The position numbers and the translations under genes were made by a program. A DNA stretch of 62,706 nt, filler included, from Basidiobolus ranarum (taxonomy: Eukaryota): NCBI GenBank assembly GCA_040143965.1. It is 12 parts of 12 records of this genome, joined end to end, with 100 filler letters (N's around TTAATTAATTAA, not from the genome) between each part and the next. Parts side by side here need not be neighbours in the genome. Positions count along the whole stretch, not along the records: positions 5,247 to 10,391 come from JASJQH010001697.1; 11 more parts are not named here. One strand, given 5' to 3'. Shown here one piece after another: positions 2,052-46,030 of the stretch (its first letter is position 1; each line of letters begins with the position of its first letter). A model generated the notes under the pieces. That model was not told where the DNA came from. It saw only the letters and a program-made list of their open reading frames with translations, and did not search any database.

Positions 2052-3876
2052 CTATTTCGTTGGAATCGATCCCCTCCATTGTTCCCCTCTGCGTAGAACA
2101 AGTATCGGTAATATGACGCTGACTGCGGTGATAATTCCCCAGATGGTCATCATCCACCCATCTCCTAGACTGGCTCTCATCGTAGTGGCAAATAGAGGGG
2201 TGATGGTAGCCAGTAGACTACGCACAAAGTTCGCGCAGCTCGTGATCGACGCCGAATACTCTGAGAATGCATCCACCAAATAGGTATTACTGGTAGCAAT
2301 GATGATGTTCATCCCAAAACCAACTAAAATTCCAGAAGAAAGTCAGATTTAGATCAGTTAAGAGTTGAATCGCTGCTTTAAAATCAACTTACAGAGAAAA
2401 TGGCCAATAAGTGGCAGTATGTAATGGGTTTCAAAATGAAGCAACCATCCATAGACAAGACATCCCACTGGAACTAGAAACGAACCGATCCAGAGCGAGT
2501 GCAGCCTCATCTCTGGCTTGTGAAAACCACCGTTGGCCTTCATCTGCTTACGTAGGGTGTAATCTGTATACACTCCGCCGAATACCGTGCCTAGGATACT
2601 GCCCGCACCCTCGGCGCCATAACAGAAGCCTATTTGGGATGAAGTGAGACTGTATCTCTCAGCATAGGTTTCCGACAGTAAGGTTAGCAATAAAAACAGC
2701 ACTCCAAATATGATTCCAGGATATACGGTGATAAGGAGGACTGCCGGGTAGCGCAAGAAATACAAAGGCTTGAATGGGTTTGGGAAGCTCTGCTTGGGGT
2801 TCTTGACCGGGATATTGTTCAGTTTGGGTGGATATGTCTCCGGTAAGAGAAAGAAACTCACAATGAGAATCAGTCCACTGAGGATACTCAGAAACCAGAA
2901 TATCCATTTCCAACCCAAATACTGGTTAATCGCACCTCCTATCATGGAACCAGTGATTGGCCCAACCAAGGGACCAATGTAGAAAAGACCTGAATAGCAA
3001 AGCATGAATATTCTCTGGCGCACCTTTGATAGCTATGTAAAAGTTCCTTACCCATGGCTGTGCCTCGCTCTTGTATGTCAAATAAATCCGAGATGGAACC
3101 AGCGCCGACTGCCATGGCTGCAGAACTGCCAGAACTCTGAAGGATTCGCATCACGATGAACATGGCGATGTTGCTGGAAAGGGCGCAAAGTATGGATGCG
3201 ATGAGAAAAAGAACTGTGGATAGTATGTACACAATTCGGCGACCGTGACGCTCTGAAATGGGAGCCCAAAACAATGGCTAATGGCAATATGTTAGTTACC
3301 GCTATCTAATGCTATCAAACATAGTGTGCAGGTCAATCATTACCCCAAGTCCACTGAAAAGAACGTAGCAAGCGACGGTGGCGTTGATGGCATTGGCATC
3401 AGTGTCTAGTGCTGTACGCACATCCATCAATGCTGGCAACTACAGATCAACAGAGTTGTTCAGATTAATTCACTCTGGCATCGGGAAATTCTTACCACAT
3501 ACATACATATATTGAACTCGCCAATGGGCCTAGAAATCCAACCAGCGCGATCATAAGTAGAACCGACATTTTTTTGGATCTCTCCCAGGCCTACTTGGAG
3601 GAAAAGAAAGATTTAAAACGGTGTTCTTATAAGCTAGTCGTGTGACAGATCTTGAAGGTGTGGGAGCTTGAAGTACATACCATGGGATCAATATGAGTGG
3701 ATTTTTCGCATTCTGGCACGTTGATGGTAGTCAGGTTGGGATTATCTTTAGCCTACAGGGGAGTAATCCAATGAGTGGCAGGCTTCATGTAGTGGGCGAG
3801 GCAGTCTCTCTGGAAAAAGACTTACTTTATCATCCTCTGGAGAACTCTGGGGGGATACAAACTCCGGAGAGGACAT
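2052..3876 (-). CDS. MFS transporter, DHA1/multidrug type, about 7 exons
   Basis: ATG at 3876 and short GT-AG introns. Spliced peptides include DPMAWERSKK, WAPISERHGRRIVY (motif A), MRILQ..GSSAAMAVGAGSISDLF..QERGTAMG, GPLVGP..GG.I.QYLGWKWIFW, KPEMRL and TYLVDAF. Confidence 0.9.
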
Positions 3877-5146: not shown

Positions 5147-5246
5147 NNNNNNNNNNNNNNNNNNNNNNNNNNNNNNNNNNNNNNNNNNNNTTAATTAATT
5201 AANNNNNNNNNNNNNNNNNNNNNNNNNNNNNNNNNNNNNNNNNNNN
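5147..5246. other. Artificial contig linker N44-TTAATTAATTAA-N44 (stops in all six frames); identical linkers at 10392-10491, 15635-15734, 20876-20975, 26115-26214, 31351-31450, 36586-36685, 41820-41919, 47046-47145, 52269-52368, 57489-57588
   Basis: The same 100-bp unit recurs 11 times, and the intervening segment lengths decrease monotonically. Confidence 0.98.
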
Positions 5247-6200
5247 TGGGTGCTTGCTTGGGTCCATGTTGCAATATTTGCAGTTTACAAACAATATTGA
5301 GGGGTTTTGGGTCAACAAATTCATCTGGTTGCTGCATATGGATTTCTTCTTCTAGAATTTCATTCCAAAAGACTGTTTTTACATCCATTTAATGTAAATC
5401 AAGGTTATGGATGGCTGCAAAAAAATTACAGATAGCTTCATAAGCACAAACATCATCATTGAAAGTGTTCCACCAATTGCCTGGCTTATTCCTCCTACTG
5501 GATGATCCTGTAGGTCCTGAAGCATCCTCTGATGTATCTGAGGCTGGAAGTTTGGTTGAATTGAGCTCAGATATAGCCGGAATCTTGTCACACATCCTGA
5601 ATAGTGCTGATTGTATTTTCTGGATCAATAACTATGATTTGAGGTGAAAGATATGCTTTTTCATCCAAAATCACATCTGTGCCCTTAATTAACTTGCAAT
5701 TTTTGGTATCAAACAGTCTGTAGGCCTAAGATCTATCATAGTTACCAACAAATAGACATGTTATGCTTTTGGGTTCCAATTTAGAGCATTTTTGCACTTG
5801 AATTAGGCAATATACTGTGCAACCAGAGATCCTTAAATAATCCACACTTGGTTTCAAACCATATAGAGCTTTAAATGGAGTACAAACTTGTAGCTAAATT
5901 GTTTGGCATCTACTTCTAAATAGACAGCAGTGTAGACAGATTCAGCCCAATATTAGTAATCCAACATTTGATAATGTAACATTGCTCTTGCCATCTCCAC
6001 TTTGGTCCTATTATGATGTTATGCTACTCCCTTTCAATGTGGAGTAAAAAGTAGAATAGTTTATTGCCGAATTCCATGTTTAGAACAAAAACTAACAAAG
6101 TCTTTAGAGCTGTATCTCCATCCGTATCACTTCTTATTACACTAGTTCTTGTGCTGATTCTTTCTCTACCATGGCTTTGTATTGCTTGAACATAGCAGTA
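5247..6200 (-). mobile_element. Degenerate Ty1/copia fragment (integrase C-terminus to RT start), family B
   Basis: MDVKTVFWNEILEEEIHMQQPDEFVDP...HGPKQAP (RT), FKQYKAMVEKES and VEMARAMLH (integrase). Homologous to 43650-44830, with stops and deletions. Confidence 0.9.
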
Positions 6201-6204
6201 CCTG

Positions 6205-6565
6205 AACAAACAAGGTCAACATATGGTAGCATGTTCTCAAAGTTGTCTGTGCTTACTGGTTCAACCAAAGCTGCATTTCTATCTATATCATTCTGGTCAT
6301 GTAAATGTGGTAACTCCACAGTATCTTGACTTTTGGAAGTGTTACCAGAACTTTCAGGCAAAGTACACTCAGTGGACTCAGTGGGCAAAACTAAAGTTGA
6401 TTTTGTGCACTTATTACTGTTGATATTCACCAGGCTTTGTGCAGCTGGTGACTTTGTACAGCAACCATGCTTGTGATTATTTTTTCTATGAAGCCTTGGG
6501 CTTTCACAGCACAAAGAATTGTGACAATAATAGAAGTGCTCCTTTAAATGGTTGTGTTGCTGCAT
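6205..6565 (-). mobile_element. N-terminal part of CACTA/CMC transposase gene, cut by the copia fragment
   Basis: Aligns by eye with about 18900-19220, which runs directly into the Transposase_21 core at 17630-18320. Cys/His-rich start (YYCHNSLCC). Confidence 0.7.
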
Positions 6566-6776
6566 GAGAACAATATTGTAGAAAAATAAACATCTCCTAC
6601 ATAAGGGTGGTACTTTAGGTAAAGCCCATCAATATCATCAGCTGATTCTGAGATGGTGTCACTGATGATTCATCAGGGGACTTACAAGATATTTCCGGTA
6701 ATGGAAGGCAATTTTGGTTTTTTATAAGCTGTTTCTAAGCAATTTCATTACACCATGTTTACCATCCAAACTTGCA

Positions 6777-8528
6777 ATGCCATTAAAAAAGCATTCAAAA
6801 TCCAGGTCAAAATTAGCTTCCAAGCCAAAGCCTACTGGCATGAAAGGAAAAACACCAGCAAGAAGAGAGGACTTAATTGAGGAGCAGTCTAGTAATCAAC
6901 TATCCACTTTGGAAGGCATTAACATACCCAAAACTAACTCAAGTAATAATGAAGTATTAATCAATTTACCAGCTGTGTTCCTTTCCAGCAATAGTGCAAG
7001 TGAAGAGATTGTCATCCCTGAATTATGCAGTAAATCAATAGTTGAGCAAAGTTCAACCAAAACACTGTCAAGACCATCAACTTCCAAAATGGCTACTTTG
7101 CCCACTATTGAACAACCCTCTGCAGAAAATTTGGATAGAATTATTACAACAAGGGAAGAGCAGAAAGAACACCATAATGATTTGTATGCAATCATATGCA
7201 AAAGCTACAAAGTTGCTATACAGGCCATGACAACCAATAATGCTGCAATATTGCAATGAATGCAGTGTTTGGAAGCAACTAGTCGGCAGTTAGAGAGTCA
7301 CGCAGCAATGATACAAGATCTTCAGAATGCTGTACTTGAGCTACAGCAACATGCTGCTCCCTCTGTCCATTATTTTATGGGATTTCAATCAATCCTACAC
7401 CATTCATATGAATGTCACTGTGACAATTTAGCAGAGCAGAATATGTGTTGAACCATTAAGCCTACACAACAGCCTGAAATTGCTTGGTCACATAAAAGTC
7501 AAAATCTAATAGGAAAACTGGCAAACCAAAGTACTCTGAATATCAGAGCTGGCATCACTTGCTCTGATGATGAGTGGTTTAACACTTTGGAAACTGTGCA
7601 GAATCTTGCCCAAAATACCTGGATTTGAGCCAATTGTGGAAAAACCAAAACCAGGCATTACTCTGAAGGTTCTTGACTTATTACATGTTGCTTATCCTGG
7701 GTTTTTGCAAGCAAATGGCAATTGGCCTAGTATAGGCCTATTTGTGACACATCTCAAAACTGTACGTGATTATCAACTGCCAAAAGAAAGAAAAGCAGCT
7801 AAAGAAGTACTTAAGGAGCAGGAAGTTAGTAAACCCAAGGGAAAAGCAAAGGAGCCAGTGAGTTTTAGCTCTACTGTCTCAATTACCAAATTCTTCACAC
7901 CATTATAAAGATCTGCATTTCCAGAGTCAGATATACTGGCAGAAAAGCTTAATTTCACTATGATCCAGGTAAACCAGTTGGAAGAGTGCTAAATATGGAA
8001 GTTTATCCAATACCTGGCATCTCACAACAAGCCAAAGCACCAGCAAATAAAACTCATGGCTCTCAAACCTCAACTGGTATTTTCCAAAGTGTTGAAATTA
8101 GCCCCAAACTTAAGGGCAAGTAAAAAGCCACACACACTGCAAAGCACCCTCAGTAGTGTTATATTACAAGGACATACAAAAATAGTCAAAGTGCTTGACA
8201 AGTATTTTCAAAGTATGAAGAGAATAATGCTGTGCGAATATGCAGAAATAGGCCTCAGAAGAAGAACATTCAGATTGGCATTCAGTCTGGTGTTGACCAT
8301 GCAGATATCTGGGAAGAACTTAACACAGAGTGGCGCAATATTGCAGGGTATCCGCCAGATTGCTGTAAGAATGCTGATTCACCATTGTTAATAAAGTGGT
8401 GGGCTTTGATGGAGATATTGATACAAACTTGTGTTGGATATGAGCTAAACCTTGGGTATGAAGAACTTGGTAAAAATATTCAAGAGAATATACTAAAGAA
8501 ACTGGGAATTTTGAAGGTGACTAATTAG
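6777..8528 (+). pseudogene. Second ORF of the CMC element (copy 1), interrupted by stops and frameshifts
   Basis: The ORF pieces 6714-7259, 7260-7451, 7567-7908 and 8232-8528 are collinear. Homologous copies lie at 8775-10291 and 19235-20875. Confidence 0.7.
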
Positions 8529-8774
8529 TGTACAAGTGATAAATGTGTAAAATTTGAGTTACATTTTTTGCACATGTGTTGTTCCATAGTTTGCTGAGAT
8601 TGCAACCAATCATGTGCAACCATTTTGCACAATCTTGCAATTTCACTCCTGAAACTGAAAAAATTGATTAAAATCAAATCTAATTTGACAATTTTATGAC
8701 ATTAAGTAAATGGTCAATCCCAAATGGATTAAAATTGTGATGGTTTTCCTTCAATAACAATCCTCAAATTTCTG

Positions 8775-10391
8775 TCAAAGAGTCTAGCAATCCATTATCC
8801 ACTTTGGAAGGCATTAACATGCCGGAAACTAACTCAAGTAATAATGAAGCATTAATCAATTTATCAGCTGTGTTCCTTTCCAGCAATAGTGCAAGTGAAG
8901 AGATTGTAATCCCACCATGAACAGCAACAACACCACACCGTAATGATTTGTATGCAATCATATGCAAAAACTACAAAGTGGCTATACAGGCCATGATAAC
9001 CAATAATGCTGCAATATTGCAATTAATGCAGCATTTGGAAGCAACTACTCAACAGTTAGTGAGTTACTCAACAATGATGCAAGACCTTCAGAATGCTGTA
9101 CTTGAGCTACAACAACATGCTGTTCCCTCTATCCATTGTCATACAGGATTTCAGCCAATCCCACAGCATATACATGAATGTCACCATGACAATATAGCAG
9201 AGAATAATGTGCATTGGACCATGAAGCCTACAAAACAACCCAAAATTGCTTGGGCTAATGAAGGTAAATCTCATAGGAAAACCAGCAGACCAAAAGGCTC
9301 TGAATGTCAGAGCCACCATCACTTGCTCTGATGATGAGTGGTGTAATGTTTTGGAAACTGTGCGGAATCTGGCCCAAAATCACCTAGATTTAAGCCAATT
9401 GAGGAAAACCAAAACCAGGTGTTACTCTGAAGGTTATTGAATTAATGCATGTGGCTTATCCTAGGTTTTTGCAAGCAAATGGCAATTGGGCTACTTTAGG
9501 CCTATTCATGAAACATCTCAAAAATGTACCCAAGTACTGACTTCAAAAAGAAAGAAAAGCAGCAAAGAAGTACTCAGGGAGCAGGAAGGTAGAAAACCCA
9601 AGGGAAACGCAAAGGAGCCAGTAAGTTTAGGCCTTTCTGTCCCACTTACCAAATTATTCACACCATTACAAAGGTCTGCATTTCCAGAGTCAGATAGACT
9701 GGTACAAAAGCTTAATTTAACCATGGAACCAGGTCACCAGTTGGAAGAGTGCTAAATTTGGAAGTTTATCCAACAACTTGCACCTCTCAACAAGCTAAAA
9801 CACCAGCAACAAAAACTCATGGCTCTCCAACCTCATCTGGTACTTCTCAAAGTGTTGAAATTAGCCCCAAACTTAAGGGCAAGCAAAAAGCCACACACAC
9901 TGCAAAGCACCCTCAGTAGTGTTATACTACAAGGACATACAAAAATAGTCAAAGTGCTTGACAAGTATTTTCAAAAGTATGAAGAGAATAATGCAGTGCA
10001 AGTATGCAGAAAGTGGCCTCAGAAGTAGAACATTTGACTTGGCATTCAGTCTGGTGTTGAGCATGCAGATATCTGGGAAGAACTTAACACAGAGTGGCGC
10101 AATATTGCAGGGTTTCCGCCAGATTGCTGTAAGAATGCTGATTCACCATTGTTAATAAAGTGGTGGGCTTTGATGGAGATATTGATACAAACTTGTATTG
10201 GATATGAGCTAAACCTTGGGTATGAAGAACTCTGTAAAAATATTCAAGAGAATATACTAAAGAAACTGGGAATTTTGAAGATGACTAATTAGTGTGCAAG
10301 TGATAAATGTGTAAAATTTGAGTTACATTTTTTGCACATGTGTTGTTCCATAGTTTGCTGAGATTGCAGCCAATCATGTGCAACCATTTTG
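8775..10391 (+). repeat. Tandem second copy of CMC ORF2 region plus downstream flank (internal ~150-bp deletion)
   Basis: Direct repeat of about 6880-8627. The 3' parts are nearly identical and the 5' parts more diverged. Confidence 0.9.
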
Positions 10392-10493
10392 NNNNNNNNN
10401 NNNNNNNNNNNNNNNNNNNNNNNNNNNNNNNNNNNTTAATTAATTAANNNNNNNNNNNNNNNNNNNNNNNNNNNNNNNNNNNNNNNNNNNNCA

Positions 10494-11436
10494 GGAACAA
10501 AGCTCAATATTACAGTGAATCTTAGCAAATACTACGATGAATTGATTGACAAGCAGCTTGCCTTAGGAAGTGATGCTTTAGAGCCAGACATGACGCACTT
10601 ACAAACCGTCCAAAACTTCCCACGTTGGAAATCTGAAGGAGCTTTACTGAAGTAACCTTAATCTTTAAAGAAGTCAGAATGTTGTATCATTAACTAACTG
10701 TTTCCCAATTAGATATAAGCCCGTCGGCTTCAACCATATTTACGGCCCATATAAAGACAGAGAAGGTTACTACTGGACTACCAATATTTACTTCTTCTCG
10801 AATCTAGTTAGTACCACTGTTCCTAAGTCTCAAAGGCCTATTGAAGCAGCGGATTATTTAAGACCTTAGCTAAAGGGTGGTAAAATCATATACACCTACC
10901 CTCATGATGACGACTCAGTCCTCTATCAATTCATGCAACTGATCAAGCAAAACGGCCTGGACTGGTTCAAGGGCTTCCTTGCCCAAAAGCCACTAGCAGT
11001 TCGTGGAACATACACGCCATCCTTCTACATTACTAATGGCACGTCTACAGCAACTTTCAATACTATGGGATCGCTAAATCCACAAGCAGGAGATGTGCTT
11101 GCAACCATTGTGCCTAAGAAAACATTCTTCCAGTCATGGACCCAAATGGGAGCCATTTTCAAGAAGGCCAAGCACCCAGCTGCTGCCAAGTTATATGCCA
11201 GCTGGTTGACATCCTATGATTTTCAAAAGAACTTTATGTCAATGTCATGGTCCCAGAGAACTGACGTGCCTCCCCCCATCGGAATGAAGGCTATTTGGAA
11301 CATCAAAAATACCGATCCTGCTGGTTTCCTCAAGTATATGGAAAATCGCACCAAAGTCGAAGAGGATAAGGCATTTATGGAGAAGTTCATCGGACCAGTG
11401 ATGGGAGCTTCTCCATTGGACTTGGTTTACAGTTAG
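10494..11436 (+). pseudogene. Bacterial-type ABC solute-binding protein (Fe3+/polyamine/thiamine SBP-like) with intron 10652-10712 and in-frame TAG at 10867-10869; 5' truncated
   Basis: Spliced translation: GTKLNITVNLSKYYDELIDKQL...HLQTVQNFPRWKSEGALLK|YKPVGF...KDREGYY...ADYLRP*LKGGKIIYTYPHDDDSVLYQF...AIFKKAKHPAAAKLYASWLTS. The intron has GTAACC, a CTAAC branch point and TAG. Confidence 0.8.
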
Positions 11437-13301: not shown

Positions 13302-15634
13302 GGCTGTGAGCCCCAAGCTTGCAATCTCTGCAATGTCTACTTCCCAGATTTATGAAGCTTTTCCCTCTTCTGAAAAATTGGATGGAACAAATCATCAAGT
13401 TTGGAAAATTAAAATGAAAATGTTGCAGCAAGAAAAAGGACTTTGGGACATTGTTGTAGGCAAAGAAAGCAATGCAAAACTCTCTGAAGCCAAAGTTTTG
13501 CTCCAGGTTAAAAAAGAACAAAGTGCCTTTAGCACAATTTGTCTCAATGTTAATGACAAATTGCTAATTTAATGTTCAAGAGCTAGAACCATCAAGAAGA
13601 TATGGAAAGCCTTGGAAGACATCTACCAAATGTGTTTTGCTGCCAACAAGATACTTCTTAGAAGACAATTGTTTAGCTTTCAGATGAAGCCAGGAGAGGA
13701 CATTATATCACTAATCAAAGGAGTCAATACTTTGGTGGATGAAATAGAATGCATTGGGGTACCTACTACTGATCAAGATATCATAGTTACTGTCCTAAAT
13801 AGCCTGCCACACAGGTTTCATAGCCTAGTGATGGCTCTTGAGTTAAGAACTGCAAATTTGAATCAGAATTATGAATTTGGCAGACTTCTGGAAGAAGATT
13901 TATGCAAATTAGGATTCAACCAAAAGAATGAAGAAAATGCTTGAATAGGCTATGGGAAATCTTCCTATAAAGGTCAAAAGCACTTGAAGAACAAAAGTAA
14001 CATATTCTGTGATTTTTGTAAAAGAACTGGCCATTTGAGTAAAGATTGCTTTAAAAGAATTGCAAAACAAGAAAAATACACTGAATCTGGAAATGTAGTT
14101 ACAACAGTGTATCACTTGTTTGCATTGCTCTATCTATGATTTCCAACAAGAATTCTCAGATGTGATCTATAGATTCTGGAACTTCCCAACATCTTACAAA
14201 TGAAAAACATTGGTTTGTGGATTATGAAGAAATCCCAATTAGAAAGGTTTTCAGGGGTGATGACAACACATTTGCTGTTATTGGAATGGGAACAACTCAA
14301 GTCAATTTAACTGGAGCTTCTGAAGAGAAAGCATATACTCTTAAGGATATACTACATGGTCCAGATATTGCTAAGAAAAAACATATTCATGCAAATCCAC
14401 CTCAAAAGGGCTAAAATCAATTTTGATAAGTCAGGATGCACCATCTGTGACAAAATGGGAAATATCTAGCTTTGAGAGAAAGGGATCAGTATATATACAA
14501 GCCTATACATAATCCATGAGGTTTATGTGTAAATATAAATTATTCTAATAAAGAAACTACTCATTTATCATTAGTGATTTGACCTTACTGGATTTGATTA
14601 TTTGGGCAAAATGATCAAAAATTGCCTAACTTCTGGAATTTCAAATTAGCCCCCCCCCACCAAAATGGAAATTTGTCAGGGATGTATATATGGAAAATAA
14701 GCAAGGCAACTGCTCAAGGGCTCTGGTTTAATCAAATATGTCAAAAAATTGGATCTAATTCATTCAGATTTGTGTGGACCAATGCAAAATTTATCTTCAG
14801 GTGGAAAAGATATGTAACCACATTTATTGATGATTATACAAGATACACTTGGGTCTACTTTGTGGAACAAAAAGAAGAAGCTCTCTCTATCTTTAGAGAT
14901 TTTGAAAAACTTGCGGAGACCAAAACTGGTACTAGAGTCAAGAAAAGGAATGTAACCAATGGCAGAGAATATACTTCAACACTACTTAATCATTTTAGCA
15001 GAGTTCATGTAATTAAGTCAGAAGCTACTGTGCCCTATTCACCCCAACAGAATGGAGTTGCTAAAGGAACTAACAGGAATATTATAGGAATGGCAAGATC
15101 TATGATAAATGCACAAAATATATCTCATAACATTTGTTCAGAATCAGTTGCTATAGCTACATTTCTGAAGAATAGGAATTTTACTAAACATTTGTCTAAC
15201 TCTACACCATATCAAGCTTGGTTTGGAGTTCAACCTGATGTGAAACATTTGAGGATCTTTGGATGCATTGCTTATGTCAAAATTATGACCCAAAATCAGT
15301 CTAAATTTGATCCAAAAAGTAAGAAATGCATATTTCTGGGTGATTGTACTCAAACTAAGGTCTACAGACTCTATGACACCAAAATATTCAAGTTAATTAA
15401 GTCCAGGGATGTTTTGTTTAATGAAAATGAAAAATTTTCACCCAAAATGACCTCAGATGATGACAAAAATCAAAATTCTCCTGATCCAATCATTCAAATT
15501 GATTCAAACCAAAACAATGAATGAAATAGCATTCCTGTGGACCCTTCAACCAAAATTTTGCCTACTGAAGTGCCCAATACAATGCCAGAAGTTGTAGTAC
15601 CTTTATCCCAAACCAGGAGATCAAATCAGATCAG
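13302..15634 (+). mobile_element. Degenerate copia family A internal region: PBS, gag, zinc knuckle, protease, integrase
   Basis: LDGTNHQVWKIKM..LQQEKGLWDIV (gag N-terminus), CDFCKRTGHLSKDC, IDSGTSQH, FIDDYTRYTWVYF, PYSPQQNG, KHLRIFGCIAY. Confidence 0.92.
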
Positions 15635-15769
15635 NNNNNNNNNNNNNNNNNNNNNNNNNNNNNNNNNNNNNNNNNNNNTTAATTAATTAANNNNNNNNNN
15701 NNNNNNNNNNNNNNNNNNNNNNNNNNNNNNNNNNCGGCCAAAGTATCCGTGGACCTTTGCAACCTAGGC

Positions 15770-16880
15770 GTTTCAGGACGCATTACTCAGTGCCCAGCTT
15801 AGACCCATCATGTTATACACAAAGTAGGAATTTACTGCTTTGGGTCCTAATTTGGAGCTTTTGTGAGGTGCAACTAGGTAATACACAATGCAACCATAGA
15901 TCCTGAGATGATGCACACTTGGTTTTGATTCATTCAGGGATTCCATTGGAGTAAACTTTTCAAGCAATCATCTTTAGCATATGTTTTTGATATAGACAGC
16001 AGTAGAGACAGATTTAGTCCAATATTGGTAATCTAACAATTGAGCATGTAACATCAATCTTGCCATCAGCACTATGGTCCTATCAGCATGTTTGGCAACT
16101 CTATTTTTCTGTTGAATTTAGCATACCATCGATTGGTATTTAATTTGAAATATAGAACAGAGACTATGAAAGTCTTCAGAGCTGTATTCAACACCATTGT
16201 CCCTCCTAAGTATCTGTATTTTTTGTGCTGATTTTGTCTCTACCACTGCTTTGTAGCACTTGAACATAGTAAGGCTCCAGGTTTTGATTGGAGAAGGAAT
16301 ACCCAGGTATATCTTGTTTTGTCATCAACAAAGGTCATGAAGTACCATTTACCACCTGGATTGACATCTTGCATGTGCCCACATAGGTCAGAATAAATCA
16401 GGGCAAAATTCTAAGTGGATTTGATCTCCCTAGAGCTTGAAAAAGGCTTGCCTAATATCAATGTGTTTTGCTCTAACATATAATGTAGTGCTTTTAGTTA
16501 ATGAAATATGACTTTGAATTTCTTCAAATATAAGAATAGGACATTTTTGCATATATCCTAAGCCTGTAAATAACTTCCTTCACCACATGGCTTCTTCTGT
16601 GGGCAGCCATATATTCTGCTTGTGTAGTAGAAAGTGCTATGATTTGTTGCTTATTAGTATTCCAAGTTATGGGATCATGACCAGAGTGAAAAGTGTGTCC
16701 AGTATTTAATTTTCTACCATCTTGTTTTCTTCCCCATTCTGCATCACTGTAGTCCTAAAAATGTAATCCATCTGGAGTGCCAGAGTATTCCAGAACTATG
16801 TTCACAGTGCCTCTCAAATACCTTAATATTTGTTTTATTGCAGCTTTTGGCTCAGATTTTAGATTTTTGGGATGTTGGCT
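15770..16880 (-). mobile_element. Degenerate copia fragments (integrase 15770-16450; RNase H 16450-16880)
   Basis: KPSVHHLRIYGCIVY and ITWNTNKQQIIALSTTQAEYMAA-like translations with stops. Confidence 0.85.
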
Positions 16881-16899
16881 GAGAGCACCCACTTACTCA

Positions 16900-17630
16900 A
16901 AATTCAGTAGTACATTGGCACTCATTTCTGCCATGCAAAAACATGTGTTTATTGCCCTACTTGTTAGAAATATCTGTCAAATCACTTTTAACAATTGTCA
17001 CTTTTTTTTTCAAAACTTCTGCAAATCATCTCAAATCTTCACCCATGCATTACAAGCATGTTGATTTTGGTCTAAGCATGTCCACTAGTCCTATTTCATA
17101 GTCAGCTCTAAATACAGTATATTCAATTCAATAAAACTCAAGTGTCAAACTTACAAATCTAAGTCTAGTTGAAAACACTTCCAAATCCTGTATAGATATT
17201 TATCAGGTTGCAAGCCCCAAGCTAGCTGTCAAAAGATTGTCTACCAGTACTATTACCAAAATTTTTGTATTCACTGAGAGGTTTGATGATGAAGACTCCA
17301 CCATTGAAGGTTCAAGATGTAAATGGTACTAGAAGACAAGGACCTCTAGGGTTTGTTGCAAGAAAAGAAATAGAGCTAAAGGGACAACCAGAAGCTATCT
17401 TTGCCTTTTTCAAGAAGCAGAGGCATGCAGCCTCTACAATTTGTCTTCTTCTTAGAAACCCTCAATTGAGGCCTATGCATTTGGACAAAATTGTCTAAAC
17501 TGCTTGGAAAACACTTGAAGGACTATGTGAGACTAAAGGTTTTGCTAAATGGATATATCTTACATGAAATTTGTGCTTTATTTAATCAAATTCTTATAAA
17601 TCCATGGCTATTCATATTAATAGGGTAAAA
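16900..17630 (+). mobile_element. Copia family B 5' LTR remnant (ends TTTATCA at 17205), degenerate PBS GGTTGCAAGCCC, decayed gag
   Basis: Similar to the LTR at 58085-58436. Downstream sequence resembles gag at 42340-42490. Confidence 0.75.
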
Positions 17631-17631
17631 A

Positions 17632-19225
17632 CTATGGCTGAGTAAGTAGTACTGGAATATTGTTTAATAGTAAGCGCATAGTGACTGATGGGAAGCTATG
17701 GCTCCAGCTGATGCCCCTCAGCAATATGAACTTGGGCCCATAGTTAATCTCAAGTTTAATGTTAGACTGACTATTTGGTGAATTGATATCAGCAAGCATG
17801 TTGAGACCTGAGCAAGCTCTAAATTGTATAATCATTGAGGTTAGTTTTGGATTTGGATAGTAGTAAAACATATGCCTGGTAGAGCAAACTTCATTGATCT
17901 GACAAAATCTACATTAACATAATGCATGATGCTCAACAAAATCTCCATATATACTGAAGGCAGGAGTTTCACCTATGCATACAATAATGTTAGCTTTGAC
18001 AAAGTATTCACAAATCTGAGCTCCATTAGATAGCCATTTAAAATCCACACTCAGACTTTCAAAGAAGCTATATATCAGAGCTAGTAATTTAGGTCCAAAA
18101 TGATCAATAGCACATATATATTTTAACTCTTACTTCATTCCAAAGGAGTAAAGTTTAGTTGATTTAAATCATTAGCCAGTAAGCCTTTCCAAAGATTATG
18201 ACTCTTATACCAGTCAGAAGGAGGAAGATTTAAGTTAATTAAAATTATTGGCCAGTCGGCCTTTCCAATGGTATATTTGTTTAGTGAGAAACCATCCAGT
18301 GCCAATGCAAATACATCCTCATTATTATGCTCATAGAAACTTGACTTTTCAGATTCAGGTAGTGTTAACTATGTAGTATAATTGTAATCCCAACAGCTTT
18401 ACAGTATTCATATCAGTGCCAGATCAATGATTTATACTTGGGTGATTTCATTGAAGGTTTCAGATGAGAAATCAATGGTATGTACACTGAACAAGACTGA
18501 CATTTATCTGATGAGTATTTGCCAATTGTGTGCAAATAGTTCTTGACTTCAGGTATACAGACCATTGGTAAAAGCTAAACAATAAGTTCAACATGCAAAT
18601 TGTTTAAATACTGAAGGATTATAAGGCATACAACTTACCAGTGCTTTCCACTTGTACCAGGTCTGTGCCAAGCAACAGTTATTTGTCAACCATGGTAAAA
18701 ATGTTAAAAAACCAGTATACATATAGTTTCTAAGATTGCATTGAACTTTGCACTCCTTGATATCAATGCTGTTTTCTTTACTATAAGTAGCTTGAGTGAA
18801 CCAATGCTTGTCAATAACAAAGAGTTGGTAGCAAAACTATTGTCTTCCACTTGATCTTGTCCTGATATTTTGCCATTAGTACTGGATTATTTGAAGTCAG
18901 CATCTAGAAGCCAATTCTCAATGTTTTTTAGTCTCACTGGTTCAATCAAACTTACACTTTTACCTATATCATTCTGTACATAAAGCTGTGGTAGCTCCAC
19001 AGTATCTAGACTTTCAGAAGTGTTACCAAACTGTGAGGTAAAGCATTACTTATGAACTCGGTGAGTTCAACTAAAGTTGCTGCATGCACTGATTACTGCT
19101 GATCCTCACCAGGCTTTGTGCAGCTGGTGGCTGTGTACAGTGAAAGTGCTTGTGCCTATTTCTACCATGAAACCTTTGGCTTTTGTAGCTAAAGAGTGTG
19201 TGACAACAATAACAGATGACTCAAT
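17632..19225 (-). mobile_element. Degenerate CACTA/CMC (Transposase_21/Tnp2-like) transposase
   Basis: FALALDGF..NKYTIGKADWPIILINLNLPPSD, IGETPA, YYYPNP and TMRLLLNNIP. Homologous to 40281-41355. Confidence 0.85.
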
Positions 19226-19234
19226 TGATGAGCA

Positions 19235-20875
19235 GTAAAGTGATCCTCTATCTGCTTTGGAAGGCATGCACATGCTGGAGAACTACTCAGATAGTGATGA
19301 AGCAGTAATCAATTTATCAGATGTGCTCCTTTCTAGCAGTAGTGTAATTGAAGATACTACAATCTCCAACTTACATAGCAGATTGATAGTCAAGCAAGGT
19401 TCAATAGAAAAACCATTAAGGCCATCCACTTGCATCATGGCCACTTAGCCAACTTTCAAACACCCCTCCATAGACAATTTGGATAGAATCACTTCAACAA
19501 GGGAATCTCAGGCAGGATACCATAATGATATGTTTGCATTTATAATTGAAAGCTTCAAAGTTGCTACACAGGCTATAAAAGGCATCAATGAAGCATGTTT
19601 AAGCAAATTGTCATCAGTTAGAGGGTCAATCAACATCAATGCAAGACCTTCAGAATGCTGTATTTGGGCAAAAGCAACATGCTGCTCCCTCTGTCCATTC
19701 TCATATGCAATTTCAATCATTTCTGTGACATATATACAAATGTCAATATGTCATTCTGGCACAGCAGAATGTGAATTGGCCCATCAAGTCTACACAATGA
19801 TGCAAAATTGCTTGGGCACATAAAAGTAGAAATCTCATAGGAAAACCAGCAATCCAAAAGGCTCTGAATGTCAGAGCTGCCATCACTTGCTTCAATGGTG
19901 AGTGGTTGAGTATTTTGGAAACTGTGTGGATCTTGGCCAAAATCACCTCAATTTGATAAATTGTGGCAAAACCAAAAACCAGGTGTTACCCTGAGGGCTC
20001 TAGACTTATATCATCTGGCTTATCCTGGGCTTTGGAAAGCAAATAGCAGTTGTGTTTGTATGGGCCTTTTGTGAAATATCTCAAAAGAGCTACCATCATA
20101 TGCTCTGCAGATGAATTGTTAAACATTTTGGAAATGGTGTAGAATCTTGCTCAGAATCATCTGGATATGAGCCGATTGTGCAAACACCAATGTCCAGGTA
20201 TTACTTTGAAGGTTCATGACTTATTTCATGTGACATATCCTGGGTTTTTGCAAGCAAGAGGCATTTGGGCTAGTATAGGACTATTCATAAAACATCTCAA
20301 AATGTATGCAATTATTGACTTGGAAAAGAAAAAAAAGCAGCTCAAGATATACTCCAGGAGTAGTGAATTAGTAAGCCAATGAAATGTAAAGAGCTAGGAA
20401 CATCAGGCACTTTTATCTCACATATGATATACCTCAAACCATTATGAAGATCTGCATTAAGGGAGTGAACTATATTGGCAAAAGGCTTGATTTTCACCTC
20501 TCAACAAGCTAAAACACCAGCAAATAAAATTCACAGCTCTCCAACCTCAGTGGTACTTTTCAAAGTGTAGAAACTAGGCCCAAGCTTGAAGGCAAGCAAA
20601 AAGCTGCACAAATGCTGCAATACACCCTTAGTAGTGTCACATTGGAAGGTGGTATAAGCAAAACCACTACAGCATCACTGAGTAGCCTGAGTGGTTTTAA
20701 ACTATAAGGATAAAAAAAATAGTGACGGTGCTTGAAGAGTATGTTTGGAGGTACGAAGGGAAAATATTGTGCAAGTATGCAGAATGTGGCTTAAGGCAAG
20801 GAACTCTCAACTTGACATTCAAGCAGGCTTTGACTGTGCAGATATCTCGGATGAACTTTATAGAGAGGGGTAAAG
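19235..20875 (+). pseudogene. CMC ORF2, copy 3, divergent from the transposase; contains a 213-bp internal tandem duplication
   Basis: Collinear similarity to about 6880-8330. Repeated units start at 19873 and 20086. Confidence 0.75.
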
Positions 20876-22928: not shown

Positions 22929-24345
22929 ATTCCACGTACGAAAGAAAATAACAAAGAGAAGAGGAATAACCAGATGCGTACAGTTCAAATTCCAGGTTGG
23001 ATGATTAAATACTCGCTGAATAGATGACACTGTCAATCCCAGTGAAAAGTTAAATATACACGATCAATAGAAAACTGATTCTTAACCATATCCATGGAGA
23101 GGCGATGGGTTCATCAAGTTGGTACAACACCCGTATCACCTCCTAAGATTATTCATAAACCAGTCCCACGCGAACAGAGATGATCGAATTCATACACAGT
23201 CAAGCAATATTGCTCTGCCCATACATGGAGTCTGCTAACTTTGTAATAAGGTTGTTGATACGTTCCTTTAGCATTTCGGCTCAAGACAGGCCTTCATTGA
23301 ATTTCCTAGAAAGCCACAATACTCTTTGCATGATTGCATGTGAGTAAATTGAGTAGATCACCAACTCGAATAAGAATTTGTGTAGCAATCAATAATAATA
23401 GTACAACCAAGAAGAAGACTAAATTCTTGATGAGAAGAGTGAAGTCTCCGCTTTGTATCCAATCAGTTAATGGCAAATGATATTCTTAACTCGATTTCAT
23501 TTGATACGTAATCTGGTAAAGGATCCTAGATCATATTCAGCTTGCCAACTAATACAATGAGAACATGTATTTCTCTAGCCATTTTCTCCAACAACCTTCT
23601 ATTCTCAATTCTCCCCAATTAAATCCCAATTGTTGAGTCTGTAAGATGCCGCCAAGTCAAATAGTATCAAATTGCGATCATTTATCGACAAATGTTTGAT
23701 TTGTAGTCAACGTATTCTTCCAATCGGGTTTTTAACACTTGCCATGTCCACGGGCCCTTTCCAGAGGAATCAAGGTATGCTTGTTACAAGGTCCCCTCCA
23801 ATCCCTGGGGCCCTTGGTTGGCAGCGCCTGGAGCTGTTTTTACACTAATGTTTAGGAAATAAATCTGGTGACTCACTAGCTAGTGGAGGTTTTTGTTTGA
23901 GAGATCATCAGTGCTTTTATTTTTCATTGCACATGTTAGATAAATTCTCAAATTTTTGTGATCTACACAATGATCCAGTAGAGAACAAGTCCCCAGGCAC
24001 GATGAGAAAGTACTATCTCACAACTAGCTCGATCACGAGATTTGTCGTTTATTTTGAAAAATATATTATTCATTGGAGATTCGGTAATTGATTAACCTAA
24101 ATAGAAAGCGCCCATCAGATTTCTTCACAACATAGAAAAGTTTTCCAATTACCCTGAATCCACCATCTTGGTCCAATTGGTTGCTAAACCGTTCTTCATA
24201 TTTTATTCGCTTGTATTATTGATGGACCATCCATGTTTCTTACCGCCTTTTCCTTCTTGGGATTCAATCATTTTGTATTTATGTATATTTCTCCAGGAAT
24301 AATGCTCTCTTTTTAACAAGTCTCCCTTCCTCTGGGACTGCGAAG

Positions 24346-25207
24346 ATGGCGACTTTCCGAAGAAGTTTGCGGTGTTCATTGTTGTTAGGATTCACGAGTT
24401 TTATTCTATTTTTTATTACTATAGCATACGTCTCGCATAGAAGTTCACCAACAATATTTGAATATCACCACAACACTACCGGGAGACTTATTTTTATCGG
24501 AGATGTTCACGGACATTTGCATTCTTTCAACAAACTTCTGAAGAAATTGAATCTAGAGCCAGAGGATCAGGTGGTGCTTTTAGGAGATTTGGTATCCAAA
24601 GGGCCGGATTCTGTTGGTACGCTTGCTCGAGCTAAAGAAATTAATGCACTTTGTGTACGTGGAAACCACGATGACCTCGTTATACGTTGGAGACATTATT
24701 ACAGGTTGACACATAGTGATTGGAATATCAACGAGGAGCACCAAAAAATAGCTAGGTATTGCCACTTTCTTTCCTCTCTTTACTCGAGTGATTTTTTAAA
24801 ATTCCTCTCTTGATCATAGCGCTCTACCACGCGAGCTTTACGAATATCTAGATAGCTGCCCGTTAATACTTCACATACCACAATATTCAGTTTATGCGGT
24901 TCACGCTGGCTTGAACCCATATACCTCCGTCAACGAACAGAGTCGATTTCACGTGATGAATATGAGACGTGTTTTGCCCAATTCCCAACCAACTAAAGAG
25001 AAAGATGAGGGGATTCCTTGGTCTACTGTCTGGAATGAAATGCAATCTACCCTAGGCGATCCCAAAACCGTGTTATATGGTCACGAATCCTCTCGTGGTC
25101 TGGTAGTCTTGCCTTATGCGGTCGGTCTGGATACTGGTTGCGGAAAAAAAGAGAGATTGACTGCCATGATCTATCCCCAGCGCACACTGGTCAGTGTTAA
25201 ATGTTGA
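24346..25207 (+). CDS. Membrane-anchored metallophosphoesterase, Ppn2/ApaH-like (intron 24756-24819)
   Basis: N-terminal TM segment; motifs GDVHG, GDLVSKGP, RGNHD, VHAGL, YGH and GLDTGC. Confidence 0.88.
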
Positions 25208-39930: not shown

Positions 39931-40280
39931 ATTTGGAGATATTTAGAAGTTGGTTGGAAGTAGTTTGGAGAACTGAAAAATTAGTGCTTTTAGCTAATCA
40001 ATATATTGAGTAGTAAGAAGCTGTTTATAAATTTATAAAGATATAAACAGGCCAAAACTTAGAATATGTCAAGCAAGGTCTTAAGAGTGTTCATTCAAAG
40101 TTTGGGGCTTCTAGCACAAGCTTGAGAAATTGATGTATTTGAGAACTTCTAAGTTGCTACTAATACACCAAGTCAATTTCATTGGAGATTAGCAAATGGT
40201 ATCCTAGTGAAATACAAAATAACCAAATGCTAAGGTATAAATAACTATGAAGTTGCTTAGACTAGACTTATTTCTAAACA
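39931..40280 (-). mobile_element. Diverged copia family A LTR
   Basis: Reverse complement resembles 12955-13301 (TTCTCCAAACTACTTCCAAC, GCTAGAAGCCCCAAACTTTG, TTAGAAGTTCTCA). Confidence 0.75.
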
Positions 40281-41355
40281 TAAGCTGCTCCTCCACACAA
40301 TATTTGTCTACAATACATAGAAATAGAACATTGATGTTGCAGGGCAAAAAACATGCAATAATAAGTCAGCATCTTCACATGGTTAGCTTCTGTCAAAGAA
40401 GCTGGGGTGAGTGAATTGATTTGCTGATACATGATCAGCTGATTAGTTGATTGCTCCAATGTTCTGCTACAAATAGATGTGTCATTGTTTGAATAGATTA
40501 CCCCATGGCTAAAATGTGATGGTATCTTGATGTTTTGAAGCATTTTCTCAATCAATTCAAACTTTAATCCTATTTTGAATGGCTCATTCATATTGAATTT
40601 GCTACTATATAGCTGAGTAAGTAGTATTGGAATGTTGATGAATAGTAAGTGCATAGTGCCTAATAGGAAGCTCTGGCTCCAGCTGATCCCCTATAGCAAT
40701 ATAATCTTAGGCTTACAGCTAATACCAAGTTTGATGAGAGACTGACTATTTGGTGAACTGATATCAGTGATCATTTGAAATCTGCCTAGGCTCTTGATAG
40801 AAAAATCATGAAGTTTAGCTTTGTATTTGAATAGTAGTAATGCATATGCCTGAAAGTGTAAACTCAATTGATTTGACAAAATATACAGCAAGAACATGCA
40901 TTGTGCCTGCAGAAACCTGCAAGTCTACTGATGGCAGGAGAGTCACCAATCCCTATAATGGTATTAGCTTTAATAAAATATTCACCCATCTGAACCCCAT
41001 TAGATAACCATTCAAATTCCACAATCAAAGGCTCCAAGAAGCTCTCTATAAGCACTGGTGATTTAGGTCCAGATATGATGGATAGTATCAAAATACTGTG
41101 ACTCTTATACTGCTCAGAAGGAGGAAGATTTAAGTTAATTAAAATTGTTGGCCAGTAAGCCATTCCAATGATGTATTTGTTTAGCAAGAAACCATCCAGA
41201 GCCAATGCAAACACATGATCATAGATGTTCTCAAAGAAACCTTGACTTTTGAGATTCTGGTAGTGCTATCCATCAAGTATATTGGTAATAGCATCAGCCT
41301 TATGGTGAGTACTTTAGTATTGGATCAATGATCTATATTTGGGTGATTTCATCAA
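40281..41355 (-). mobile_element. CACTA/CMC transposase core (Transposase_21-like), degenerate
   Basis: FALALDGF...YWPTILINLNLPPSEQYK..ILILSIISGPKSP..IESFLEPLIVEF..L..G...IGDSPAISRLAGFCRHNACSCCIFC...TMHLLFINI. Confidence 0.9.
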
Positions 41356-41919
41356 GACTTTAAGATGCAGTGTAGTTGTTTTAGGGTGTAAGCAGCAACT
41401 ATAACTGCAATATCCTAAGGGTTTTGTGAGGTGGCCAAAGGGTGCAATGATCACAGTTGAATAACTCTGGGATGTACTGTAATATGGGTCTGTCTCTTGC
41501 CTCTTGGGTCTTTGTGAAAGGGAATCAAGGCTCTAGAAATGTCTAAGGACTGATAAACCACAATACAAACTCCAGCTTTCCATTGAATAATATGCTGACG
41601 CCTGACAAAAGAATATACTGGCTTCAGTGTCCTTTGAGAATGATCAGATAAAAAGGGTATATCCAATCAAAAACAACTGTAAACTCAGCCAGCAGGGTCT
41701 TGAATGAGGATGCACTAGTAGTGATTTATCCAAGGATATGAAAAAGTTCCTTGCCTATGCAGACAAAGCTAGGGAAAAAATATAAAGTATCAGAAATATA
41801 ACACCTACCTGTCAGTACTNNNNNNNNNNNNNNNNNNNNNNNNNNNNNNNNNNNNNNNNNNNNTTAATTAATTAANNNNNNNNNNNNNNNNNNNNNNNNN
41901 NNNNNNNNNNNNNNNNNNN

Positions 41920-45300: not shown

Positions 45301-45590
45301 GATGTCCAGACATTGCTGTTGCTGTGGGAACTGTTGGCCAATACCTCAAAAATCAAGGATCTGAGCACAAAACTGCAGTAAAACAAATATTCAGGTATTT
45401 GAGGAGAACTGTAGAACTAGTTCTGGAATACTCTGCCACTCCTGATGCACAAAACTTTGAAGGCTACAGTGATGCCAACTGGGGAAGAAACCTTGATGAT
45501 AGAAGAACAACACCTGGATACACTTTTCTCTATGGTAATGGAGCCATAACTTGGAATAGTAAGAAGCAACCAACTATTGCACTTTCTACT
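42330..45590 (+). mobile_element. Near full-length degenerate copia family B gag-pol
   Basis: CKYCKRPGH, YVDSEASQHM, IHLDLCGP, EMARSMLH, CKWVYRVK...YKAKFVAKGYSQ, QMNVKTAFLNG, ADDLII, VGSLMY, GYSDANW and AITWNSKKQ, in the copia order PR-IN-RT-RH. Confidence 0.95.
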
Positions 45591-46030
45591 TGTTGCTAGA
45601 TGTTGATGTTGGTTACTCCAGTACTGATGGTAGAATATCAGAAATTGACAAAGAAGACAACAGTTCTGTTACAGACTCTTTGTTATTAGCAAGCATTACT
45701 CAACTCATGACACTTACAGAAAAGGAGGCAGCTTTGATTATTGAGAAGTGGACAGTTCAAATCAATCTTAGCAATATGGTGTTAATTGGTTTTGTGTCAC
45801 TATTGTCACAGGTGATTGGCAACCATTGCTTTCCATAGACCTGGTACAAGTGGAAAACACTTGTTTATTGTATGTATTATAACCTTTCAGTAATTACACT
45901 ACCTTCATGTCCAAATGGTTCTTTGGCTTGTACTGGTGATCTGAGAAACCTGCAGTCATGTACTGTATGCACTCAACAGAAATCACTGAATCAGTTAAGT
46001 ATTGTTCATATTTGACATATGTACTAGACT
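45591..46030 (+). mobile_element. CMC transposase internal fragment
   Basis: Homologous to the reverse complement of about 18480-18910 (shared AGACCTGGTACAAGTGGAAA). Confidence 0.75.

Follow-up and report, generated by a model that had tools for sequence, protein, structure and literature searches.

In DNA of the fungus Basidiobolus ranarum, the 5' end of a minus-strand transposase gene lies next to a second coding sequence on the plus strand, here called ORF2, which raises the question of whether the two belong to one transposon and what ORF2 would do in it. The stretch of DNA that we analysed (the window; 62,706 nucleotides, filler included) consists of 12 pieces, each of ~5.1 kb, with joints of the form N44-TTAATTAATTAA-N44. 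One locus lies in piece 2 (5247-10391) and one in piece 4 (15735-20875). Since the window is made of separate pieces joined by filler, the two loci are on independent pieces, in agreement with the original prediction of two independent contigs. We consider, with a probability of roughly 60%, that the locus represents a defunct and rearranged remnant of an EnSpm/CACTA-type (Tnp2 DDE, CMC/CMCT clade) transposon family in which ORF2 stands head to head with the transposase and encodes an accessory factor. The features are collected in Table 1.

Table 1. Coordinates of transposase, ORF2 and neighbouring features in the window.
Feature	Position	Strand	Basis or remark
Copia-type retrotransposon fragment	5247..6196	-	blastn to 43645-44832 (piece 9), 78-84% identity
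5' end of Tnp2/EnSpm-type transposase pseudogene, copy 1	6137..6565	-	open frame up to ATG 6565
Segment with both first ATGs and 211-bp spacer	6533..6855	.	323 bp, absent from piece 4 copy
ORF2 pseudogene, copy 1	6777..8530	+	translations; tblastn to P0008, P0009, P0010
3' flank of ORF2 copy 1	8531..8780	.	up to tandem repeat unit; no element terminus recognised
Tandem second ORF2 copy, 1b	8781..10391	+	begins at equivalent of 6886, ~130 bp deletion
Transposase pseudogene, piece 4 copy	17638..19211	-	stops and frameshifts
ORF2 pseudogene, piece 4 copy	19204..20875	+	blastn; tblastn with P0008, P0009, P0010
Third transposase fragment	40496..41364	-	P0003 residues 204-493, Transposase_21 core; tblastn
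Transposase fragment	42035-42277	+	tblastn with P0003
Transposase fragment, piece 9	45590..45976	+	P0003 residues 53-182, tblastn
Transposase fragment	46583-46810	-	tblastn with P0003

As had been proposed, the transposase belongs to the CMC/EnSpm (Tnp2) type. PF02992 matched 40864-41265 (E 6.1e-14, 52.2 bits against a cutoff of 28.6) as well as P0003, a 698-aa Tnp2-family relative (E 1.9e-16), and a weak match was found on 18135-18368. The relatives are named Basidiobolus ranarum, which supports a fungal host. In piece 2, the transposase is reduced to a stump of ~140 codons (or ~60) by the Copia-type fragment, which truncates it near 6196-6215; residues 1-76 of P0003 match 6146-6388 on the minus strand (tblastn E 8e-12), and the stump, which covers only the non-catalytic N-terminal part, contains no Pfam domain. 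The piece 4 copy is longer, with 17638-19030(-) matching P0003 residues 14-454 (tblastn), and is 76-80% identical to the piece 8 fragment (blastn). A C(2)C motif (CRFC) and an H(3)H motif (HSLLH) were read in P0003 by eye, as candidates, and CRFC was read in the same way in 17632-17913; C(2)C and H(3-4)H motifs are listed for transposases of the CMCT clade (Kojima 2025, PMC12730594). The region 18526-18907 was considered as a solo LTR, and this was ruled out by tblastn, which identified it as transposase coding sequence.

The predicted adjacency of the minus-strand transposase 5' end and the plus-strand ORF2 was found in both of the pieces in which it could be checked, in each case as a relic. 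On the ORF2 side of the junction, 6856-7759 corresponds to 19204-20086 with 75.0% identity, and on the transposase side, 6215-6532 corresponds to 18896-19211 with 75.9% identity (blastn). The equal divergence on both sides indicates that the transposase and ORF2 were copied as one unit. These are the only two transposase/ORF2 junctions visible in the window, and both copies are truncated and lie among nested fragments of Copia-type and other origin; the related Copia-type region at 43645-44832 carries RVT_2 (E 9e-28) and a copia-type gag. The other transposase fragments, one in piece 8 and three in piece 9, are cut before they reach the junction: at 40496-41364 the piece ends before any ORF2 could show, and those in piece 9 are all interrupted by Copia-type sequence, as assigned by Pfam on neighbouring ORFs. 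The window contains no complete copy of the element, every one being cut short by another repeat or by the edge of its piece. No element end that could show the proposed CAC..GTG TIRs or a 2-3 bp TSD lies inside the window, and the region downstream of ORF2 falls outside the view in every copy. The pairing of transposase and ORF2 is real, yet ordinary for an EnSpm/CACTA-type element, and ORF2 is likely to be borne by the element as one of the genes of this family.

The original prediction described ORF2 as an open frame of ~580 codons. This does not hold for the locus, where ORF2 copy 1 is a pseudogene: 6777-8530 spans 1754 nt, which is not a multiple of 3, and is interrupted by four or more in-frame stops and by repeated changes of frame. 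Comparison with P0010, an uninterrupted 257-aa ORF2 relative that is 72-85% identical to copy 1, placed two stops in copy 1, at 7449 and at 7906, and two changes of frame, at 7616-7648 and at ~7950. A TGA at 7257 occupies a position where copy 1b and P0009 have Leu, and a further stop at ~8121 and frame changes at ~8135 and ~8210 were deduced from the other copies. The open stretches that remain on the plus strand are of 185, 132, 122, and 109 codons, while the minus strand reaches only 102; the plus-strand open frames exceeded those of all 1000 dinucleotide shuffles (shuffle maximum, 171).

ORF2 nevertheless represents a genuine uncharacterised protein family, as had been suggested. Besides P0010, a 299-aa relative, P0008, shares 45-46% identity with P0010 and has conserved motifs; P0010 itself comes from a short contig labelled Ascosphaera pollenicola, which may reflect contamination or horizontal transfer. 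Nothing significant was found in Pfam, NCBIfam, or PDB sequences with the ORF2 pieces, P0008, P0009, or P0010, and Foldseek against PDB gave no match at E <= 0.001. A HMMER search of 1.84 billion representative proteins with the read-through of 7540-8391 gave five matches (four short fragments and one diverged); the last ~140 residues of this query are in a non-ancestral frame, so that the C-terminal third of ORF2 lies outside the sensitive search. A profile search with the ORF2 alignment returned only P0008 itself and P0009, a word-based search with the 122-aa ORF2 piece among longer proteins gave no match in 586 candidates, and no relative was found when metagenome contigs and prokaryote genome contigs were searched for related loci. 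The ORF2 family is probably lineage-specific, with a full protein of ~540-585 residues.

In the translation of copy 1, a low-complexity N-terminal part is followed by a coiled-coil helix, a conserved helical region (..CSDDEW..YPGF.QANGNW..), a Lys-rich linker, the TKFF motif, a Pro/Ser/Thr-rich part, and the C-terminal WEELNTEW region. The basic N-terminus and the YPGF..NGNW, ITKFF, and WEELNTEW motifs named in the original prediction are all present. The coiled-coil-like stretch is seen as a long helix in the AlphaFold model of P0008 (residues 7-81, pLDDT ~95) and as heptad periodicity: the 3.5-residue hydrophobic periodicity was reached by 0 of 1000 shuffles for P0008, 11 for copy 1, and 37 for copy 1b, although it was not significant in P0009 (326 of 1000). 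This long coiled-coil helix is the only structural feature of ORF2 that is modelled with confidence. The conserved region is probably all-helical according to the P0008 model (helices at 145-232, pLDDT 58-73); predicted alone, it reached pLDDT 46.7, which is too low for a statement on its fold. A wide structure search with VIA-align returned only generic coiled coils (Z <= 6.6, residues 4-83), and in the ESM Atlas the best score of P0008 was 0.87, under the bar of 0.9, and 8202-8528 gave no usable match. At low resolution, ORF2 is seen to comprise four parts: a disordered N-terminal region, a heptad helix of ~70 residues, the conserved region, and Lys-rich linkers.

The reading of ITKFF as a PIP-box-like motif has to be given up. 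The PIP box consensus is Q-x-x-[ILM]-x-x-[FY]-[FY]. Copy 1 reads S-T-V-S-I-T-K-F-F and its relatives STVPLTKFF, with Thr instead of the defining Gln three residues before I/L, and P0008, which is more diverged, lacks the motif altogether.

By analogy with TnpA of maize En/Spm or with the CACTA 'ORF2', the protein is most likely a non-catalytic accessory factor that would self-associate through its coiled coil, bind the element ends and/or the transposase, and help to assemble or regulate the transposition complex. CACTA elements are described as carrying, besides the transposase, an ORF2 whose function is not known but which helps transposition in some of the families (Buchmann 2014, PMC4158355), the second protein being needed for or supporting transposition in the studied families (PMC4158355, PMC1636069), and accessory proteins are not conserved among CACTA lineages (DeMarco 2006, PMC1636069). 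That ORF2 acts specifically as an end-binding, oligomerising factor of the TnpA kind is a tentative extension of this analogy. ORF2 is not a member of PF03004 (Transposase_24, TnpA-like), to which the ORF2 pieces, P0008, P0009, and P0010 gave no match at E up to 1, and it may work in a TnpA-like manner all the same. No DNA-binding or anti-silencing family, fold, or motif was found in ORF2 by Pfam, NCBIfam, and PDB-sequence searches.

Among known systems, maize En/Spm and the plant CACTA elements likewise combine a Tnp2/Transposase_21 DDE transposase with a fast-evolving, non-catalytic second protein. In Spm, however, the proteins come from one transcription unit via alternative splicing (PMC1636069), whereas here two genes diverge from a spacer, and ORF2 has no similarity to the plant TnpA-type families, as the PF03004 result indicates. 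The fungal EnSpm/Plavaka/ESTA elements (CMCT; PMC12730594) have a transposase marked by C(2)C plus H(3-4)H, for which CRFC and HSLLH are the candidates here, and often carry an extra gene; this gene encodes a TET/JBP dioxygenase, unlike ORF2, no sequence of which gave a Pfam match to such a domain. Their hosts in the accessible text of that paper are Dikarya (rusts, mushrooms, and Pezizomycetes), and neither Basidiobolus nor the gene orientation of EnSpm is mentioned there. CNIRT6 of Cryptococcus neoformans (PMC12810828) is also a fungal CACTA-superfamily element with a CMC-group DDE transposase, but it is active, whereas the Basidiobolus copies here are dead, and in the accessible description CNAG_01367 is its one transposase gene, with no mention of a second ORF. 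SmTRC1 of Schistosoma mansoni also belongs to the Transposase_21 elements. For its other proteins, no relatives are detectable in other CACTA elements, and yet its authors propose a TnpA-like DNA-binding role for them, by the same reasoning as is followed here for ORF2; unlike the two-gene fungal element here, it makes its proteins by alternative splicing of one unit and lives in an animal host (PMC1636069). Huge CMC-EnSpm expansions have been reported in Basidiobolus genomes (Muszewska 2017), and the literature on Basidiobolus EnSpm/CACTA elements and on a CACTA ORF2 in opposite orientation, as far as its accessible text goes, contains no description of ORF2 or of this arrangement.

Other explanations of the adjacency have to be weighed against an element-borne ORF2. 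LINE ORF1 proteins have a disordered N-terminus, a coiled coil, and then a globular part, an order that ORF2 loosely resembles. The junction could be a chance join of two repeats, such as a transposase stump and the first ORF of a retroelement, with the composite spread by segmental duplication, and the presence of only two junctions, both truncated amid Copia-type and other fragments, with the sequence beyond the 3' side of ORF2 outside the view in all copies, would agree with it. We regard this as very unlikely, since the junction copies have diverged by ~25% equally on both sides, which fits old dispersed copies of one unit, ORF2 gave no Pfam match to Transposase_22 (LINE ORF1p) or another retroelement family, and the region after the coiled coil in P0008 is modelled, with low confidence (pLDDT 58-73), as helices rather than an RRM-like fold. 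It is also improbable, if less so, that ORF2 is a passenger without a role in transposition, captured once beside the transposase 5' end and derived from either a host gene or part of some other repeat. Capture of unrelated genes, TET/JBP among them, is known from fungal CMCT elements (Kojima 2025, PMC12730594), ORF2 has no detectable kinship to any transposon protein family, the diverged relative P0008 is intact, and the family rearranges readily: one copy is in tandem, another has an internal duplication, and in P0005 the order is shuffled. Against a captured host gene, the relatives among the 1.84 billion representatives are short or partial repeat-like fragments together with P0008 and P0010 rather than an ordinary conserved host family, and the ORF2 copies decay neutrally like the transposase, with the same extreme CpG depletion.

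This depletion bears also on the suggestion, made in the original prediction, that ORF2 may counter silencing. The CpG observed/expected ratio was 0.00-0.08 in the element and the Copia-type repeats and 0.41-0.92 in five host genes; since the repeats are CpG-depleted relative to the host genes, the host very probably methylates its repeats, which would provide the selective setting for a factor that protects the element from a DNA-methylation-based defence. Precedents exist in the TET/JBP genes of other fungal CMCT elements, proposed to counter methylation (Kojima 2025, PMC12730594), and in maize TnpA, which is able to reactivate a methylated Spm promoter (DeMarco 2006, PMC1636069). However, ORF2 carries no signature of a dioxygenase or of any other enzyme, the sequence itself holds nothing that bears on this function, and no protection is visible because the copies of the ORF2 element are as CpG-depleted as the Copia-type elements; such a role for ORF2 is accordingly highly improbable. 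For the preferred reading of ORF2 as an element-borne accessory gene, the interest lies in the fact that CACTA/EnSpm elements have received little study beyond plants, and that hardly anything has been characterised of their second proteins. If a fungal family sets such an orphan gene head to head with the transposase, it would offer a compact two-gene system for the non-catalytic partners of CMC transposases, and also for the regulation of elements in a host that very probably methylates its repeats heavily. The dead locus is valuable as a pointer to the P0010/P0008-like family, which is worth study in intact Basidiobolus copies.

The spacer that separates the two genes may drive both of them. 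The proposed starts, ~210 bp apart, exist in piece 2 as ATGs at 6565(-) and 6777(+), separated by 211 bp, but are absent from piece 4. Both sit in the 323-bp segment missing from the second copy, and the promoter model thus depends on one decayed copy. AGA stands on both sides of this segment, and in piece 4 its two flanks meet at 19204-19211. The idea of a small inserted element was considered for the segment and dropped, as neither a terminal inverted repeat nor LTR-like ends were seen and the window holds no further copy of it; the difference between the pieces may reflect an insertion or a deletion. Database predictions start elsewhere (tblastn places Met1 of P0003 at 6388 and that of P0009 at 6924), and alternative start codons are equally possible; the spacer is ~0.2 kb or longer, depending on which start codons are real. 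PIF/Harbinger elements have oppositely oriented genes for the transposase and a Myb-like protein, and mudrA and mudrB of MuDR are oppositely oriented, convergent rather than divergent. The layout here is also like that of IS3EU, with a transposase and an alpha-kinase in opposite orientation (Kojima 2025, PMC12730594). PIF/Harbinger, MuDR, and IS3EU belong to other superfamilies, and their accessory proteins are unrelated to ORF2. A broader scheme, which we regard as rather unlikely, is that a Zoopagomycota EnSpm lineage replaced the one-transcript TnpA/TnpD layout by two genes off a compact internal bidirectional promoter, with a partner of new fold (coiled coil plus helical W/YPGF/NGNW domain) that would bind the ends or shield the element from CpG methylation in a genome whose repeats are mutated to a CpG o/e of ~0.05.

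The end at 8740 of the range flagged in the original prediction falls in the 3' flank of copy 1, shortly before a tandem second ORF2 copy. Only short, chance-level repeats were found in 8531-8790; 8531-8627 is common to copy 1b as far as the piece end. Differences between the window copies were flat across codon positions, and in the absence of codon periodicity the copies bear no sign of selection on the protein; a flat result is expected for neutrally decaying copies and is thus uninformative. A leftward extension of copy 1b into transposase-like sequence was considered and dropped, the alignment score being at shuffle level. Copy 1b has no transposase in front and runs off the piece end. 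As a local tandem duplicate, this third copy of ORF2 is 89.1% identical to copy 1 over 1462 nt with a repeat spacing of 1764-1895. The piece 4 ORF2 directly abuts the transposase 5' end, contains an internal duplication of ~215 bp, is cut by the piece end, and is more decayed than copy 1.

The window contains a Tnp2-type transposon family with which a divergent second gene, ORF2, is copied along, and ORF2 encodes a coiled-coil-containing, lineage-restricted protein. The window (62.7 kb) consists of 12 pieces of 5118–5146 bp each, ordered from longest to shortest and joined by linkers of the form N44-TTAATTAATTAA-N44 (separators at 5147–5246, 10392–10491 and so on). Adjacent pieces are not genome neighbours, and the window is not a single locus. 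The locus under study lies in piece 2 (the second record, 5247–10391) and its claimed second copy in piece 4 (15735–20875); the window sequence and protein databases form the evidence base for all results.

A Pfam search detected Transposase_21 (Tnp2, PF02992) at 40864–41265 on the minus strand of piece 8 (E = 6.1e-14; 52.2 bits vs a cutoff of 28.6) and gave a second, weak match at 18135–18368 on the minus strand of piece 4. The single longer relative obtained by a word-based search was P0003, a 698-aa transposase from an ENA record, which is 83% identical and contains PF02992 (E = 1.9e-16) and DUF1258. CRFC and HSLLH motifs, read by eye in P0003, are of the kind listed for the CMCT clade in passages of Kojima 2025 (PMC12730594). 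Fragments matching P0003 were found by tblastn in pieces 2, 4 and 8, and three more were all located in piece 9. All transposase copies in the window are truncated, and neither the transposase 3' half nor element ends were found among them. The piece-2 transposase is cut near 6196–6215 by a fragment matching the Copia-type element of piece 9, which was assigned from its RVT_2 and copia gag domains. Piece 9 (41920–47045) is a repeat nest in which different dead copies stand side by side.

Transposase fragments and the piece-9 Copia-type element in the window
Feature	Coordinates	Strand	Piece	Search
P0003 residues 1-76	6388-6146	(-)	2	tblastn
P0003 residues 14-454	19030-17638	(-)	4	tblastn
P0003 residues 204-493	41364-40496	(-)	8	tblastn
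Transposase C-terminal fragment	42035-42277		9	
Copia-type element	about 42343-45599		9	
Transposase fragment, residues 53-182	45590-45976		9	
Inverted transposase fragment	46583-46810		9	

The head-to-head adjacency of the transposase and ORF2 proposed in the original prediction is real and old, as indicated by equal divergence of pieces 2 and 4 on the two sides of the junction (75.9% and 75.0% identity). The starts had been placed at 6565 and 6777; both ATGs are present in piece 2, but both lie within a 323-bp segment (6533–6855) that is absent from piece 4, where its flanks meet at 19204–19211. This segment, which has AGA on either side, also takes in all 211 bp of the spacer as well as the part of ORF2 described as its 'basic N-terminus'. 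Neither inverted ends in the segment nor a further copy of it in the window was found. The data fit a model in which piece 4 would have lost an ancestral segment by deletion. They also fit a model in which the transposase would start at the position corresponding to 6388, where P0003 has its Met, and ORF2 at a Met corresponding to 6924; the 323 bp would then be an indel within the spacer, whose length would be 535 bp in piece 2 as against about 200 bp in piece 4. At the codon equivalent to 6924, copy 1 has ATA, and the tandem second ORF2 copy (copy 1b), the piece-4 copy and the ORF2 relative P0009 have ATG. At 6600–6660 the spacer includes a palindrome of 10 bp, ATCAGCTGAT, whose core is CAGCTG; CATCA/TGATG words are close by. 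The likeness of these words to the PlavakaB termini, 5'-CATCA..TGATG-3' in the part of Kojima 2025 (PMC12730594) describing them, is probably due to chance.

Copy 1 of ORF2 (6777–8530), on the plus strand beside the transposase 5' end, contains stop-free stretches of 185, 132, 122 and 109 codons. In 1000 dinucleotide shuffles, the longest stretch never exceeded 171 codons and the four longest together never exceeded 411 (548 in copy 1); on the minus strand, the longest open stretch was just 102 codons. HMMER against 1.84 billion representative proteins gave five ORF2 matches at E ≤ 0.001. Four were short fragments, those looked up being named 'hypothetical protein, partial [Basidiobolus ranarum]', and the fifth, P0008 (299 aa, ENA record), was 37% identical to the query. 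The sole addition from a profile search was P0009, a B. ranarum partial protein. P0010, a relative of 7308–8075 obtained via cluster look-up, is an uninterrupted 257-aa segment that is 72–85% identical to copy 1 and open across the sites of the copy 1 lesions. P0010 and P0008 are 45–46% identical and have in common the motifs GFQ.xPH, KPxxQPxIAW, LIGKPxNQKTLN, C.D..W and YPGFxQANGNWAxIGLF. The occurrence in AT-rich DNA of two frames this long, both intact and diverged from each other, shows that the ORF2 protein is under selection; ORF2 is a gene in copies elsewhere. No match to ORF2 or any of its relatives was found in Pfam, NCBIfam or PDB sequences. P0010, the best intact relative, is filed in NCBI under the ascomycete Ascosphaera pollenicola (1000-bp contig) and shares a 90% cluster with a B. 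ranarum protein. Contamination of the Ascosphaera pollenicola assembly seems a likelier source than horizontal transfer.

The single long open frame that had been predicted for ORF2 did not hold up: comparison with P0010, the other copies and the relative P0006 revealed that copy 1 is broken by stops and frame changes. Alignment to P0010 places stops at 7449 and 7906, with the reading frame shifting at 7616–7648 and again at about 7950. TGA stands at 7257 where copy 1b and P0009 have Leu, and the other copies and P0006 imply that a further stop lies at about 8121 and that the frame also shifts near 8135 and near 8210. Copy 1b (8781–10391) follows in tandem with 89% identity and a repeat spacing of 1764–1895; the units of this old duplication (6886–8780 and 8781–10391) cover most of ORF2, and the second has a ~130-bp deletion. 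Because several frame changes are common to both units, the duplication is younger than the death of the ORF2 copy. The piece-4 copy (19204–20875), about 75% identical and ended by the piece boundary, has an internal duplication of ~215 bp (19870–20086 and 20086–20300). Differences between copies are spread evenly over the three codon positions (e.g. 30/37/36), which indicates that the window copies decayed neutrally; the piece-2 locus itself is a dead fragment. In P0005, a B. ranarum fragment, the downstream linker stands ahead of the conserved region, and P0009 passes directly from a His-rich linker to the C-terminal region. On the sequences of these two proteins and the piece-4 duplication, the ORF2 family is readily rearranged.

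An AlphaFold model of P0008 from a shallow alignment (mean pLDDT 59.5) showed a single long helix at residues 7–81 (pLDDT about 95), separated by a disordered linker from helices at residues 145–232 (pLDDT 58–73). Hydrophobic 3.5-residue periodicity was reached by 0, 11 and 37 of 1000 shuffles for P0008, copy 1 and copy 1b, respectively, which supports an amphipathic or coiled-coil helix; that of P0009 was unsupported (326/1000). Foldseek found nothing, and a wide structural search returned generic coiled coils alone (Z ≤ 6.6). The conserved region modelled alone was unusable (pLDDT 46.7), and the label of a 'new' fold for it is unwarranted.

According to sections of PMC1636069 and PMC4158355, maize Spm requires both TnpD and TnpA, the latter being an element-binding protein that also interacts with TnpD; 'ORF2' of CACTA elements aids transposition in some families, and such partner proteins are unconserved across lineages. 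By analogy, we infer that ORF2 is probably the accessory factor of this transposon family. It would self-associate via its helix and bind element ends and/or the transposase, and the spacer would drive both genes.

CpG observed/expected was 0.00–0.08 in the repeats (6137–10391, 17632–20875, 40204–41532, 42387–45599 and 13573–15524), with TpG and CpA in excess (1.25–1.55), and 0.41–0.92 in five host genes (55446–56444, 49757–50988, 24223–25207, 2358–3277 and 10870–11436). CpG is thus nearly missing from the repeats, which points to their methylation and is the pattern left by prolonged CpG methylation and deamination directed at transposons. The proposed anti-silencing role of ORF2 is supported only circumstantially, by this sign of repeat methylation, but ORF2-bearing copies were as CpG-depleted as Copia-type ones.

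Huge CMC-EnSpm expansions in Basidiobolus are already reported in a portion of Muszewska 2017. In the parts of the literature covered by our search, no description of ORF2 or of a divergent CACTA layout was found. For two-gene transposons of other kinds, IS3EU among them, opposite gene orientation is already on record, as described in a passage of Kojima 2025 (PMC12730594).
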